Assembly (NCBI GenBank): GCA_048940925.1
Contig: JBHLOC010000019.1
Coordinates: 21,977-85,976 of the forward strand
Reading direction: 5' to 3'
DNA: 64,000 nt
Source of the DNA: Promethearchaeota archaeon
GTDB taxonomy: Archaea > Asgardarchaeota > Lokiarchaeia > Sigyniarchaeales > SOKP01
A program made the position numbers and the translations under genes. Of this stretch, positions 3,338 to 41,550 are shown in pieces. The number at the start of each line of letters is the position of its first letter. Position 1 is the stretch's first letter. The notes under the pieces were generated by a model, which was not told where the DNA came from, did no database searches, and was given only the letters and a program-made list of their open reading frames with translations.

Positions 3338-3502
3338 ATGAATCAAGAAATAAATTCAAAAAAGAAGAAAAAATATGATGAAGATGAAGATTATGATGAA
3401 AATAATGATGGATACTACGAAGATGAAGATGACGAAGATGATTGGGATTATGATGACGATGAAAAAGAAGAAATAGATGATTATGATGAAATCTATAGTT
3501 AA
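3338..3502 (+). CDS. Small hyper-acidic, Tyr-rich protein (54 aa; not in ORF track)
   Basis: AGGAGGA RBS at 3324-3330; MNQEINSKKKKKYDEDEDYDENNDGYYEDEDDEDDWDYDDDEKEEIDDYDEIYS*. Confidence 0.75.
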   Translation: MNQEINSKKKKKYDEDEDYDENNDGYYEDEDDEDDWDYDDDEKEEIDDYDEIYS

Positions 3503-21342: not shown

Positions 21343-22353
21343 ATGATGAAAGCTGCAATTTATGATGGAAAAGAATTATCCATTAATGAAATTCCTAGAC
21401 CAGAACTTTCAGCAACTCAAGTTCTTATTCAAGTTAAAGCAGTTGGGATATGTGGAACTGATTTAGCTATTATAAATGGTTCATTACCGACACCTACTCC
21501 TATTATTCTTGGTCATGAATTATCTGGGGAAATTCTAGAAATTGGAGATAAAGTTGATCCGAAATGGATTAATAAAAAAGTTACTTGCGAAATTAATAGC
21601 AATATTGATTTTGATTGTTATTATTGCAAGCAGAAGCAATATTCACAATGCATTTCTCGAAAAGCATTAGGAATAGATATTGATGGAGCACTTGCTGAAT
21701 ATATCGCTGTAGAATCTTATCTACTGCACGAAATCGCTGAAAATATTTCATTTGAAGAAGCTACTTTTATCGAACCTTTAGCTGCTGCATATCAAATATT
21801 CGAGATGATGCCACTGGATGAGAATGATAAAATAATAGCAATCTATGGACTTGGTAAATTGGGGATGCTTATAACACAAGTTGCGTTAAAAAAAGGACTA
21901 AAATTGATTGTTGTTGATGGATCTCATGAAAAAATTAATTTAGCAAAAAATTTTGGTGCTCAATTTCAAATAAACAGATTTGATGGTATTAATGTCCCTG
22001 ATTCAATAAAAACTTATACTAATGGTTTAGGAGCTGATATTGTTATCGATGCGACTGGTAACCCTTTAGCTTTAAAGGATGTGATAGCTTCATGTAGAAC
22101 AAGAGGCAAAATCCATGTAAAAAGTACACATGGCGTTGACACACCCATAAATTTAACTGATCTAGTTGTTCGCGAATTGACTCTTTATACAAGTCGTTGT
22201 GGACCATTTAAAAAAGCTATCGAGGGATTAAAATCAGGAGACATAAAAGTTGATAAATTAATTACTAAAAAATTTGACTTAAAAGACATTGAAAAAGCTG
22301 TAAATTTTCATATGAAAAACCCAGAACATATTAAAGCTATTATTCGAATATAA
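21343..22353 (+). CDS. Zinc-dependent alcohol/polyol dehydrogenase (MDR family)
   Basis: GICGTD, ILGHE, structural Zn region CYYC...C, EPLAAA, GLGKLG Rossmann motif. Confidence 0.9.
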   Translation: MMKAAIYDGKELSINEIPRPELSATQVLIQVKAVGICGTDLAIINGSLPTPTPIILGHELSGEILEIGDKVDPKWINKKVTCEINSNIDFDCYYCKQKQYSQCISRKALGIDIDGALAEYIAVESYLLHEIAENISFEEATFIEPLAAAYQIFEMMPLDENDKIIAIYGLGKLGMLITQVALKKGLKLIVVDGSHEKINLAKNFGAQFQINRFDGINVPDSIKTYTNGLGADIVIDATGNPLALKDVIASCRTRGKIHVKSTHGVDTPINLTDLVVRELTLYTSRCGPFKKAIEGLKSGDIKVDKLITKKFDLKDIEKAVNFHMKNPEHIKAIIRI

Positions 22354-37626: not shown

Positions 37627-38177
37627 TTATACATTTTGTTTAATCGTAAATTCCCAAGCACACCAATAATTATCAGGGTGAGGATCTGGAGGACAGGCTA
37701 TACATTTTGTTTTAATTCTTGGGTCAATCGTTTTGGCAAAAAGGCCATACTCTATTATACCCACTTGCTTACAAGGAAAGTCTAGGAGTCCCCTTCGTTT
37801 TCTAGCAGATTGTACTCGGCAGTTATTCATTCTAAAAACACATTTTTTCTCTGTAACTTCAATGGTCTCTTGAATATTTATATTAGCATATATTCTATAT
37901 TTTAATGCTTTAATTAAAGCGGGAATTCCTCCATTTTCAGGAATATTAAATCGTTGCATAATTCTTTTAGCTTCTATTACAGTGAATCTCTTCCATTGTT
38001 TTACATCTAATTCAATAGCTTTATCAAGGCCATATTCTGATTCAACAACCTGAAACCAGGTTATAGGTTTAAAGGACTTCTTTAAAACTTTCCATCTATG
38101 GCTAGCCAGTTTTTAGAGATATCTTCAATATAATTCAATAATTCTTCCTTTGATAAATTTAACAAATCTTCTCTCAT
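37627..38177 (-). CDS. DUF6125-like protein, 173 aa after removal of a 29-nt intron (exon 1 38177-38090, exon 2 38060-37627)
   Basis: Exon 1 MREDLLNLSKEELLNYIEDISKNWLAIDG; joined codon ACC (T); exon 2 WFQVVESEYGLDKAIELD...CRVQSARKRRGLLDFPCKQVG...CPPDPHPDNYWCAWEF; the NWLAxDGxWF family motif forms only after removal. Confidence 0.85.
38061..38089 (-). other. Candidate bulge-helix-bulge (BHB) intron in a protein-coding gene
   Basis: AGTTTTAAAGAAGTCCTTTAAACCTATAA; central helix AUGG/CUAU, 3-nt bulges AAA and AAC, 8-bp intron stem; BHB cut sites coincide with frame-restoring boundaries. Confidence 0.8.
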
Positions 38178-38180
38178 AAT

Positions 38181-39068
38181 TCAATTCGAATGTTTTATTT
38201 TTTTATGAAAATTTTTCATACTTTTTGTATTTAATCTCTGGTCATATGAAGAAAATCTTTTACGTTTTCTTTGAAGACTTTCAGAGTAATTATCAAGCAA
38301 CTCATTAATGAGATTTCCACCTATATACATAATATAAGCACACCCCTTGTATATCTTATTTTTAACTTTAAAGAGAGATTCAACTTTTTTTGGATTATAT
38401 TGTATTTTGAATTTGTGTTTTAATTGTTTTAGGAACAATAAGCTAGCTGTGGTTATTCTAGTTGTATTAGCTGTTCCATCACCATCAAAAAATCCTAAAA
38501 GGAATGCTAAATATAGTGTTTTTAAATGAAATCTTGGCAATTTTATATGATAAGTTTTCCTTTTTCCTACGATCATTCCATGCCTGATTAAATGTTTGCA
38601 AAATCCATTTGAATTGATACTAATTCTCCAAAAATTACGTTCCTTCCTTTTTCTAATATATTTATTTTCAAAACCAATGATTTTTGATAATTTTAATAAA
38701 AGAATTTTATCTTTTAATGAAAAACCAATTTCAAAAGTTAATCGGTTATTAGATTTATAACTAATTGATCCATCAGCAAAAATAAGTCCTAAGAAATATG
38801 CTTTCTGCTTTGTATCAATATTTTCAAAATAATTAATCTTAATATTTGGATGATAAAAATAGATTTTATGATTTCTATCTCTAATTAAATGATTATCCTC
38901 ATACAAATTAAACAATTTAAGAACTTCTTGCGTTAAACATCGGTTTAATCTCAAATGTTGTTTCATTTTTGCTAAATCTTTCTTTGAAAAATAGTAATTA
39001 GGATTCTCTCTGCATATAGACATTTTATATTTAAAATAAGATTTATTTCGACTTACTAAAATTCCCAA
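38181..39068 (-). mobile_element. Free-standing two-motif LAGLIDADG homing endonuclease-like gene
   Basis: AYFLGLIFADGSI and AFLLGFFDGDGT motifs, very basic; frame stays open upstream to about 39182 with no ATG, so the start is uncertain. Confidence 0.85.
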
Positions 39069-39366
39069 TTTGTTGTAAGAATATCGATTTCCATGTAATT
39101 TATATCCCTTTTCTCGATAATAATTACCTATTATACACCTTAGAGTTTCAATAAAGGATAAAGTTTGATTTATTTTTCCCCTCTATTTTAGCTTAAAAAT
39201 AGTAATTGAATCAATTTTAATAAATACTATGAGAGACTTGAATTACAAATATAGACTGAAATTTCTTGAAAAGAGGAGTAGATACTTCTATTTGCATATT
39301 TTCTTTACATAAAATTAAATATCCGAGTTAAATTTAAATTAAAAGGAAAAATTTTAACTAGAGTTT

Positions 39367-39498
39367 GTGAAAATTGGAGCTAAACGTGTTATAGATGCAG
39401 GGTTCGTAATAGGAATAGTCTCCTCTGTGATCGGAGGAGTAGCTGTAGTCTGTGCTGTTTCATATTACTATATGGAGAAACAGAAAACACTTGTGTGA
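39367..39498 (+). pseudogene. Remnant C-terminal membrane anchor of a lost surface protein, or a small TM peptide
   Basis: VKIGAKRVIDAGFVIGIVSSVIGGVAVVCAVSYYYMEKQKTLV*; TM plus charged tail; in-frame stop at 39355. Confidence 0.4.
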
Positions 39499-39621
39499 AA
39501 TTTAAAATAATTATAAATCCTTCTTTTTAAATTCTTACAAAAGCAAAATTAAAAAGATTTTATACTAATTATCATTTATATCTAATTCTAAAAGAAAAAG
39601 AAGTTATCATAGTGGAATAAA

Positions 39622-41550
39622 ATGGGAAAAACTCTTACTGAAAAAATATTAGAAAAACACTTGATTGAAGGTACAATAGAAAAAGGGACAGATATAGCGA
39701 TCAAGATTGACCAAACTCTCACACAAGACGCTACAGGGACAATGACTTACCTACAATTTGAAGCAATAGGAATACCGAGAGTACAGACAGAATTATCTGT
39801 AAGTTATGTTGATCATAATACTTTACAAACTGATTTTAAGAATCCTGATGATCATAGGTATCTACAAAGTATTGCTGCTAAATATGGACTTTATTTTTCA
39901 CGTCCAGGCAATGGAATATGCCATCAACTACACTTAGAACGCTTTGCAAGACCTGGAAAAACATTACTTGGTTCAGATAGCCATACTCCAACGGGTGGTG
40001 GTGTAGGGATGATAGCAATAGGAGCAGGAGGTCTTGATGTTGCAGCTGCGATGGCGGGAGAAACATTTAGACTAAAAATGCCTAAAGTAGTAAATGTATA
40101 TTTGACAGGAAAATTACCGGACTTCGTATCCGCAAAAGATATTATATTAGAAGTTTTGAGGAGAATAGGTGTTAAAGGTGCTGTAAACAAAGTCTTGGAA
40201 TATACAGGTCCAGGAATAAAAACTCTTACTGTTCCAGAAAGGGGAACAATTACAAATATGGGAACTGAAACTGGAGCAACAACCTCAATCTTTCCCTCAG
40301 ATAATATTACAAAAGAGTTTTTAGAAGCTCAAGAGAGAGGAGATCAATGGATTCTCTTAGAGCCAGATGATGATGCTATATATGATGAAAAAATTGAGAT
40401 TAATTTAAATGAATTGGAACCCCTTATTGCACTTCCACATAGTCCAGGAAATGTAAAAACTATCGAAGAAGTTAAGGGATTACAGGTAGATCAAGTCTGT
40501 ATTGGAAGTTGTACAAATTCTTCTTTAAGAGACTTGAAAATAGTAGCAAATATTTTGAAAGGAAAAACTATTAATGAACATACCGTTCTAACTGTCTCAC
40601 CAGGCTCTCGTCAGGTAGTAACTCATATGGTTAAATCTGGGGAAATGGCATTTTTAGTCGAAGCAGGAGCCAGAATTCTTGAAAATGCTTGTGGTCCATG
40701 CATAGGTATGGGACTTGCTCCTAAAAGTGACGCAATATCATTACGAACTTTTAATAGGAACTTTCTCGGAAGAACAGGAACGAAAAGTGCCCAAGCATAC
40801 CTCGTTAGTCCTGAAACTGCTGCAGTATCTGCTATTGAAGGGAAAATTACAGATCCAAGAAGCTTTGGAAAATTACCTCAAATTGAAATGCCTAAAAAAT
40901 TCATAGTAAATGATAATATGATTATACCACCATTATCTCCAGAAAAAGCAAATTTGATTACAATTGTTAGAGGTCCAAATATTAAACCTTTACCTGAATT
41001 TAAACCTTTACCCGATAAATTGGAAGGAGAAGTACTTCTTAAGGTTGAAGATGACATAACCACAGATCATATAATGCCAGCAGGAGCAAAAATTCTTCCT
41101 TTAAGATCTAATATCCCTGAGATTAGCAAATATGTTTTTAATGTTATTGATGATCGTTTCCATGACAGATCTTTGGAAAAGGGGGGTGGTTTTATAGTTG
41201 GAGGAGAGAATTATGGTCAAGGTTCCAGTAGAGAACATGCAGCAATAGCACCTAAATATTTGGGAATTAAAGCAGTTATAGTTAAATCATTCGCACGTAT
41301 TCATTTAGCAAATCTTATCAACTTTGGAATTGTACCTCTAACTTTTGCTAACAAAAACGATTATGATAAAATCACGCAGGGAGATCGATTTGAAATTAAT
41401 CTTAATACCTTGGAATCTGGTAAAGTAATATTAAAGATTTTAAATAAAAATTTAGAAATCCCTTTGACTCATTCTCTAAGTTCACAGGAAATTGAAGAAT
41501 TAAAAGAAGGTGGAAAACTTACTTTAATTAAACAAAAACACAAAAAATAG
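39622..41550 (+). CDS. acn: Aconitate hydratase (compact about 640-aa type), copy 1
   Basis: TQDATG, DHN, GICHQ, GSDSHT, IGSCTN, CGPCIG, FNRNF.GR, TTDHI.PAG, NYGQGSSREHAA, SFARIH. Confidence 0.93.
   Translation: MGKTLTEKILEKHLIEGTIEKGTDIAIKIDQTLTQDATGTMTYLQFEAIGIPRVQTELSVSYVDHNTLQTDFKNPDDHRYLQSIAAKYGLYFSRPGNGICHQLHLERFARPGKTLLGSDSHTPTGGGVGMIAIGAGGLDVAAAMAGETFRLKMPKVVNVYLTGKLPDFVSAKDIILEVLRRIGVKGAVNKVLEYTGPGIKTLTVPERGTITNMGTETGATTSIFPSDNITKEFLEAQERGDQWILLEPDDDAIYDEKIEINLNELEPLIALPHSPGNVKTIEEVKGLQVDQVCIGSCTNSSLRDLKIVANILKGKTINEHTVLTVSPGSRQVVTHMVKSGEMAFLVEAGARILENACGPCIGMGLAPKSDAISLRTFNRNFLGRTGTKSAQAYLVSPETAAVSAIEGKITDPRSFGKLPQIEMPKKFIVNDNMIIPPLSPEKANLITIVRGPNIKPLPEFKPLPDKLEGEVLLKVEDDITTDHIMPAGAKILPLRSNIPEISKYVFNVIDDRFHDRSLEKGGGFIVGGENYGQGSSREHAAIAPKYLGIKAVIVKSFARIHLANLINFGIVPLTFANKNDYDKITQGDRFEINLNTLESGKVILKILNKNLEIPLTHSLSSQEIEELKEGGKLTLIKQKHKK

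Follow-up and report, generated by a model that had tools for sequence, protein, structure and literature searches.

A free-standing LAGLIDADG nuclease gene and a bulge-helix-bulge mini-intron of DUF6125 as a probable collaborative homing pair in a Promethearchaeota genome

The nuclease gene and the split DUF6125 gene

The analysed stretch of DNA, referred to here as the window, comprises 64,000 nucleotides (nt) of a Promethearchaeota archaeon (positions 21,977 to 85,976 of contig JBHLOC010000019.1). On its minus strand it carries a free-standing, two-motif LAGLIDADG homing-endonuclease gene (38181..39182), directly upstream of a DUF6125 gene that is interrupted by a 29-nt bulge-helix-bulge (BHB) mini-intron. 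The nuclease open reading frame (ORF) spans 333 codons from stop to stop with an intact body, and its stop codon TGA (38183-38181) lies 3 nt ahead of the DUF6125 start codon ATG (38177-38175) on the same strand. Against Pfam, the ORF scores above the cut-offs for both LAGLIDADG_3 (38.8 bits, cut-off 22.5) and LAGLIDADG_1 (23.2 bits, cut-off 23.1). Motif 1, LGLIFADGS (38766..38792), and motif 2, LLGFFDGDGT (38472..38501), each retain the catalytic aspartate, with A136, D137 and G138 of the first and D233, G234, D235 and G236 of the second being invariant; the acidic residues D137 and D233/D235 are unchanged across 10 aligned sequences, comprising the window protein and its orthologues. The orthologues form nine metagenomic clusters with 63-73% identity to the window protein, one of which bears the source label Lokiarchaeota LAGLIDADG homing endonuclease. 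A profile search of the PDB with the window protein and its orthologues returned I-Tsp061I (2dch, E 4e-6) and the I-DmoI/I-CreI chimera (1mow, E 0.004), the solved structures nearest in sequence in this search being archaeal rRNA-intron nucleases. The AlphaFold2 model of the nuclease, built from the 10 sequences, had a mean predicted local distance difference test score (pLDDT) of 54 and a predicted template modelling score (pTM) of 0.36, too low for a fold search. Rfam and tRNA scans of the window gave no match. The first-pass annotation of this DNA had described a two-motif LAGLIDADG ORF with both acidic residues, ending 3 nt before DUF6125 on the same strand, and both descriptions are borne out.

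The orthologues start with ATG at one of two positions and their genes are intact. Protein and DNA alignments place a TAG (39183..39185, minus strand) in the window copy where the long-form orthologues (P0003, P0009) have their ATG, and AAG (Lys25; 39108..39110) stands where the short-form orthologues (P0002, P0004, P0007, P0008) have theirs, the start codon having been lost. An earlier remark that the ORF lacks a clear ATG is thereby sharpened to two specific replacements, at 39185-39183 and 39110-39108. The only in-frame starts remaining are TTG 39068 and ATG 39023; the TTG (39066..39068), as the first canonical one, would give a product of 295 amino acids, 14 fewer than the short orthologue form. 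At the other end, the orthologues terminate after SYDKK, and the window copy, without that stop, reads through the spacer up to DUF6125. This C-terminal run-on of about 17 codons (38181..38237, minus strand), delimited by the end of the alignment and by the spacers of orthologous loci, crosses a spacer that contains the A/T-rich promoter-like region of DUF6125. Judged as a gene, the window copy is no longer intact, with both orthologous starts and the stop gone and the body still open. Because these start and stop codons are lost, the copy is probably in early decay, with translation from TTG 39068 being possible. A second decaying copy is found at L112:1359-2321, on a 16.5-kb contig from the Joint Genome Institute (JGI) with an intron-bearing DUF6125, where the nuclease orthologue is split into two ORFs of 101 and 154 codons.

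The DUF6125 gene consists of exon 1 (38090..38177, 88 nt), the ORF-less mini-intron (38061..38089, 29 nt) and exon 2 (37627..38060), all on the minus strand. Codons 1-30, encoded by exon 1, match Pfam profile positions 2-25, and exon 2 continues the match over positions 26-164 in a different reading frame. The BHB motif (38057..38098) comprises an outer helix pairing 38096-38098 with 38057-38059, a central 4-bp helix pairing AUGG (38092-38095) with CUAU (38063-38066), two bulges of 3 nt each, AAA (38089-38091) and AAC (38060-38062), and an inner stem pairing 38080-38088 with 38067-38074. Cuts after the second base of each bulge would join GAT GGA A/CC TGG, encoding DGTW and restoring the frame, and the spliced product reads DGTWFQ, the same as in intronless alleles of relatives. 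Over 11 distinct intron alleles, 94.5% of the cells of the BHB are paired and four pairs have changed on both sides; none of 500 shuffles matched the observed pairing, and slid controls reached at most 53%. Minimum-free-energy folding of the junction with RNAfold did not return the BHB (z -1.1), and the motif is therefore set by geometry and covariation. The claim that DUF6125 bears an intron, made at first pass, is upheld by the two-frame Pfam match together with these two lines of evidence.

The genome of the window, designated G000, encodes two EndA genes (PF01974) and one RtcB gene, and the intron is predicted to be removed from the mRNA by splicing. The two EndA-domain genes lie apart, on contigs C58 (74241-74465) and C18 (73532-73780), an arrangement that would fit a broad-specificity two-subunit enzyme. 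The palindrome TGGCTAGCCA, which had been singled out in the exon just before the insertion, is indeed present (38099-38108), but it is not conserved among alleles; it simply encodes W-L-A and is therefore given no weight, and as a meaningful signal it was rejected.

Co-distribution and horizontal history

The distribution of nuclease and intron was sampled over about 120 related loci and in two ways, starting from the nuclease orthologues and starting from DUF6125 alone, the latter in the genus (54 genomes with 36 full DUF6125 loci, including G000) and in JGI metagenomes. In the nuclease-first sample, all nine orthologue clusters (11 contigs from different samples, L094-L099 and L223-L226) lie directly upstream of a same-strand DUF6125 gene, with a spacer of about 25-85 nt, and in all nine the DUF6125 gene carries the 29-nt intron at the same site. 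Counting the window copy, 10 of 10 nuclease orthologues adjoin the same intron in the same gene. The pairing of a free-standing nuclease with a gene containing an ORF-less intron thus recurs in the window, the 11 metagenomic contigs and the loci L112, L114 and L170. When sampling starts from DUF6125, the 36 genus loci include the intron in G000 and G010 only and the nuclease in G000 only; among 69 informative JGI loci, five have the intron, with the nuclease beside three of these five and beside none of the 64 intronless ones. The combined co-occurrence table, of the kind the first-pass annotation had suggested drawing up, covers about 105 loci, with the nuclease beside four of the seven intron-bearing alleles vs none of about 98 intronless alleles, in addition to the nine of nine clusters with the intron. 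Its caveat that LAGLIDADG genes may be common and the adjacency fortuitous is not upheld for this nuclease clade by these counts.

The order pcp, coiled-coil gene, DUF6125 and divergent aconitase is conserved across the genus, with a DUF6125-aconitase spacer of 155-224 nt in most relatives compared to 1445 nt in G000. In the exon-2 tree, G000 is sister to the intronless G018 (support 100/99) and G010 is sister to the intronless G023 (100/96), while the nuclease-bearing metagenomic alleles fall outside the crown clade; at least three changes are forced on this tree. Exon 1 gives a different picture. In G000 it is 91% identical to the nuclease-bearing loci L094 and L099 vs 83% to G018, the exon-2 sister, whereas the first 60 nt of exon 2 are 92% identical to G018 vs 72% to L094. 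Informative sites of G000 divide donor-type to native-type as 12:5 in exon 1 and 31:77 in exon 2 (p 0.0006-0.006), with the earliest informative sites past the intron all native-type. For G010, with an L098-like donor type, the corresponding counts are 11:2 in exon 1 vs 18:81 in exon 2 (p 3.6e-6). Donor-type exon 1 sites reach up to 75 nt from the intron, and pairing constraints of the BHB therefore do not explain them. The type switches between exon 1 and exon 2 in both genomes; two independent exchanges thus end at the intron/exon 2 boundary. The upstream spacer of G010 was too A/T-rich to align with that of its sister for the left edge of the conversion tract.

G000 combines an exon 1, an intron and a nuclease of donor type with an exon 2 of the native, crown-genus type. 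The putative imported cassette (38061..39240, minus strand) accordingly comprises the intron, exon 1, the nuclease gene and about 55 nt upstream of it; its right edge coincides exactly with the intron/exon 2 boundary, and its left edge is approximate, homology to donor-type loci ending near 39240. From this mosaic structure we infer that the cassette (about 38061-39240) reached G000 after the split from the G018 lineage.

A further trace of exchange is carried by L096, a Logan contig (SRR34261176). At positions 75-159, on the upstream side of the nuclease, exon 1 occurs a second time, about 81% identical to the functional exon 1, giving the order displaced exon 1, nuclease, functional exon 1, intron and exon 2. 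The displaced copy can be aligned through nt 85 of the 87 (...ATA GAT G); beyond that point, 3 nt short of the insertion site, the match is lost. Such a layout would be expected from a cut at the insertion site followed by repair and non-homologous joining: the recipient would be cut at the insertion site, the exon-2 end would invade the donor and copy intron, exon 1 and nuclease, and the newly copied DNA would be joined without homology to the old exon-1 end. A displaced exon 1 was also sought in G000, L094, L095, L097-L099, L112 and L170 and was found in L096 only.

Beyond the cassette, the sequence that remains before the aconitase start (39241..39621) is a unique spacer that matches nothing in relatives, in donor-type loci or in the rest of the genome; BLAST of the whole spacer 39183-39625 against all loci and the rest of the genome likewise gave no match. 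Within this unmatched stretch of about 380 nt lies a 43-codon ORF on the plus strand (39367-39498) with a hydrophobic core, G+C-richer than its surroundings by eye. The same spot is variable across the genus: the DUF6125-aconitase spacer of G033, the closest intronless relative by protein identity, holds a gene for a 228-residue MBL-fold-like protein (L007:2161-2847), and G015 and G008 have other genes there. In L121, an intact intronless DUF6125 gene is followed immediately downstream by a decayed, partial second copy of its central region (L121:3000-3120; ...FTVFEAKRIMKSFNIPPNGGIPALIKGLKF...).

Paralogous systems and the wider genus

Paralogues of the nuclease in G000, with 31-39% identity, adjoin other intron-split genes. 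An acetoacetyl-CoA-synthetase-like (AACS) gene carries a 30-nt intron at WMM/WNW (the slash marking the site) in eight of 35 loci; the intron is scattered on the exon-2 tree, with at least five changes forced, and forms a BHB with compensatory changes among alleles. A nuclease or its remnant stands beside five of the eight intron-bearing AACS loci vs one of 27 intronless loci. For rpoN, a 31-nt intron occurs in nine of 39 loci, and the nuclease lies beside five of these nine vs one of the 30 intronless loci. The rpoN locus of G000 (L004:3123-3179, contig C26) also contains an altered second rpoN 3' end (YVDFLDLIDELLKFPRLQ*), about 60 nt past the functional rpoN and beginning at the position of the 31-nt intron. 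The AACS and rpoN systems point to nuclease clades that are each dedicated to a single host gene.

Several observations concern the individual AACS and rpoN loci. AACS-type nucleases occur beside the same gene in two arrangements: downstream and convergent in G000 and G064, and, as an orthologue with 74-84% identity, upstream on the same strand within a 605-codon fused frame in G012 (L038/L082, contig C53). Remnants of the C-terminus of an AACS-type nuclease (31-40 codons, 68-77% identity) lie just past the AACS stop in G014 (L081) and G002 (L092), one beside an intronless and one beside an intron-bearing allele. At the AACS loci L076, L077, L082 and L090 (G005, G008, G012 and G076), intronless genomes included, the last 30-68 codons of the gene are found displaced 0.6-1 kb downstream; the AACS nuclease may cut near the 3' end, or a long resection may have occurred. 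On contig C75 of G012 (L206), the rpoN gene next to an rpoN-type nuclease has no intron and encodes M-I-T-S-H across the junction, where M-I-V-S/G-H is usual; protection there may come from target mutation instead of an intron.

A scan combining the BHB geometry with ORF merging was applied to the whole of G000, against a very large background from gene boundaries and chance open frames. At loose settings it returned about 16,800 hits, the same as in shifted-geometry controls; limited to introns of 28-32 nt with good inner stems, it gave 72 hits vs about 43 in the control, or about 29 above background in 4.8 Mb. The scan missed the rpoN intron and is used here for nothing more than an approximate density, about 30-80 mini-introns. 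Four of the roughly 29 lie within 1.1 kb of the seven LAGLIDADG genes of G000, with 0.36 expected. Across the genus, LAGLIDADG homologues occur in 29 of the 54 genomes. Two candidate inserts emerged in addition to the introns described above. On contig C54 of G000 (3358-3387, minus strand), an MBL-fold gene (spliced ...IAIPMHNWGKDL...) contains a 30-nt BHB-like insert, seen in the genome scan only; about 100 nt separate the insert from the end of a LAGLIDADG fusion ORF of 1084 codons. On contig C97 of G073 (L057:224-253, minus strand), a phosphofructokinase-like gene has its GGDD motif (...AIGGDDTLGV...) split by a candidate 30-nt mini-intron, and a LAGLIDADG domain within a 1308-codon frame lies about 0.8 kb away.

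Collaborative homing, rival explanations and significance

The LAGLIDADG gene and the 29-nt BHB mini-intron of DUF6125 probably constitute one co-mobile unit, a collaborative homing pair. In the mechanism proposed here, the nuclease would recognise the conserved intronless DUF6125 sequence (...TGG YTN GCN ATH GAT GG/N ACN TGG TTY CA..., the slash marking the insertion site) and cut at, or a few bases from, that site. The break would be repaired from the nuclease-bearing allele, with intron, exon 1 and the upstream nuclease gene copied into the recipient, and some repair events would copy the intron with the nuclease gene and others without it. Because the intron splits the recognition site, the carrier chromosome would not be cut, and because the host EndA, the tRNA-splicing endonuclease, and RtcB ligase would excise the intron from the mRNA, DUF6125 would stay functional. 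Comparison of the alleles points to a cleavage site at the junction and to protection of the carrier by the intron. Decay of the nuclease in G000 is as expected for a homing gene whose site has become fixed. Each prediction of collaborative homing that could be confronted with sequence data, namely co-distribution, horizontal history, a tract end at the intron and a displaced exon 1, agrees with what was found. The first-pass annotation had proposed the same reading from this single locus, and the co-distribution, the intronless sisters, the mosaics and the exon 1 of L096 now lend it comparative support.

Several results weigh against collaborative homing or narrow its reach. The naive Fisher test for co-occurrence gives a p of about 7e-6, and of about 1e-4 once the duplicates L112 and L114 are counted as one locus; since the loci are phylogenetically related to one another, these values overstate independence. 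Exon 1 is only about 87 nt long, and the mosaic test rests on 17-23 informative sites. The window copy lacks the ATG starts of its orthologues and may be inactive. The intron alleles of G010, L110 and L117 have no nuclease beside them, and the intron therefore persists, and perhaps moves, without it. In each paralogous system there is one case of a nuclease or remnant next to an allele that lacks the intron (AACS in G014, rpoN in G012), and the displaced AACS 3' tails begin 274-313 codons past the intron site, for which reason they give no pointer to a break at the intron. Finally, the 28 other loci with LAGLIDADG homologues in the genus have no excess of adjacent mini-introns (23 hits vs 28 and 34 in shifted controls), the phosphofructokinase candidate of L057 being the only hit there that looked real; the pairing therefore holds for particular clades and not for the whole LAGLIDADG family.

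The nuclease could instead home elsewhere, for example into the 5' end of DUF6125 or the upstream spacer, with the intron carried as a passenger in the co-conversion tract and not acting as the determinant of immunity; tracts would then stop at the intron since its 29-nt heterology blocks extension of the heteroduplex. Phage free-standing homing genes often cut a neighbouring gene and drag flanking markers with them (PMC6083498), the displaced AACS tails do not coincide with the intron site, and the three nuclease-free intron alleles are compatible with a passenger. This explanation is nevertheless unlikely: in L096 the old exon 1 is unbroken up to 3 nt from the insertion site, which places the left end of the break there, and in G000 the old rpoN exon 2 copy begins at the position of the intron. 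A break located farther upstream, before exon 1, would not, moreover, account for two independent events in which exon 1 was converted completely and exon 2 left untouched, and none of the roughly 98 intronless alleles has an adjoining nuclease. Vertical inheritance is less probable still. It would have an ancestor with both nuclease and intron, lost together from most lineages, so that co-occurrence reflects shared ancestry. The position of the nuclease-bearing metagenomic alleles near the base of the DUF6125 tree and a divergence like that of the host gene (79% identity for the intron between G000 and G010, 63-73% for the nuclease against its orthologues) would fit such a history, but the crown clade would need about a dozen precise intron losses vs two gains, and neither the exon 1 duplication of L096 nor the fact that the two exons have different nearest relatives, in G000 as in G010, would be explained.

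Two further explanations have very little probability. Two elements that are independently frequent in a genome rich in introns might lie side by side by chance, and LAGLIDADG homologues do occur in more than half of the genomes of the genus (29/54); yet the density of about 29 mini-introns above background per 4.8 Mb would place 0.36 near the seven LAGLIDADG genes where four were found, and all 10 nuclease orthologues stand beside the same intron of the same gene. Some organellar LAGLIDADG proteins act as maturases of group I introns, and the protein of the window might likewise be a maturase-like splicing cofactor for the adjoining mini-intron in place of a DNA endonuclease. That role is as improbable as chance adjacency, considering that both catalytic acidic residues are invariant, that the intron is retained without the protein in G010, L110 and L117, and that many other mini-introns of the genome have no such neighbour. 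BHB introns are, besides, cut by EndA, which is present in G000, and the DNA-level mosaics and duplications indicate DNA breaks. Collaborative homing therefore remains the favoured account.

Displaced gene ends beside a nuclease cassette, here the exon 1 of L096, the rpoN exon 2 of G000 and the AACS tails, resemble an organellar case attributed to Paquin, Laforest and Lang (1994), in which free-standing homing genes reportedly insert with a duplicated end of the host gene; that example, in contrast to the present one, comes from an organelle and lacks a protective intron at its junction. The closest parallel to the pair as a whole is F-CphI, which adjoins the intron-containing psbA of cyanophage S-PM2 and for which it has been demonstrated that the intronless allele is cut and that the intron protects (Zeng, Bonocora & Shub 2009, as described in PMC6083498). 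In both systems a free-standing homing nuclease gene adjoins a gene with an ORF-less intron, the intron lies at the inferred break site, only the intron-bearing allele is found beside the nuclease, and the two appear to have spread jointly. The systems differ in that the host here is a cellular Asgard archaeal chromosome and not a phage, the nuclease is LAGLIDADG where F-CphI is Endo VII-like, and the intron is a 29-nt BHB dependent on host tRNA-splicing enzymes where that of psbA is a self-splicing group I ribozyme; cleavage and protection, demonstrated for F-CphI, are proposed here from comparison. The archaeal rRNA BHB introns of I-DmoI, I-Tsp061I and I-PorI share with the DUF6125 system the nuclease family, the EndA-cut intron class and an insertion that disrupts the target, but their ORF lies inside a long rRNA intron, whereas here the nuclease is encoded outside, about 90 nt upstream of a 29-nt ORF-less intron in a protein-coding gene. 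The BHB intron in the cbf5 pre-mRNA of Crenarchaeota (PMC2738675) is likewise located in a protein-coding archaeal gene with patchy gain and loss among relatives; it belongs to a different phylum and no associated homing endonuclease is described there, whereas here comparison identifies a putative mobilising enzyme. The literature searched contained no description of a free-standing LAGLIDADG nuclease arranged with a BHB mini-intron.

To our knowledge, BHB introns have no means of moving on their own. The locus offers a concrete route by which they could arrive: a nuclease encoded outside the intron would break the intronless allele, repair would bring the intron in, and the intron would shield its carrier. 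A 2026 preprint on Asgard tRNA introns states that their arrival route "remains open" (10.64898/2026.10.13.758758). Collaborative homing, so far a matter of phage group I introns, would then also operate on the chromosome of a cellular archaeon and with a class of introns spliced by proteins, and both intact nuclease orthologues and natural intronless substrates exist for this system. The apparent recent and horizontal acquisition indicates that Asgard mRNA introns can be gained in this manner, which bears on ideas of intron origin near the root of the eukaryotes. A broader and distinctly tentative reading, less likely to hold than the pairing itself, is that free-standing LAGLIDADG nucleases are a general means by which BHB mini-introns are inserted into, and spread among, Asgard protein-coding genes, with one clade per host gene (DUF6125, AACS, rpoN and perhaps the MBL-fold gene) and with orphan introns of 29-31 nt that interrupt conserved motifs as leftovers after decay of the nuclease. 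If true, it would amount to DNA-level, break-driven intron gain in the closest prokaryotic relatives of eukaryotes.

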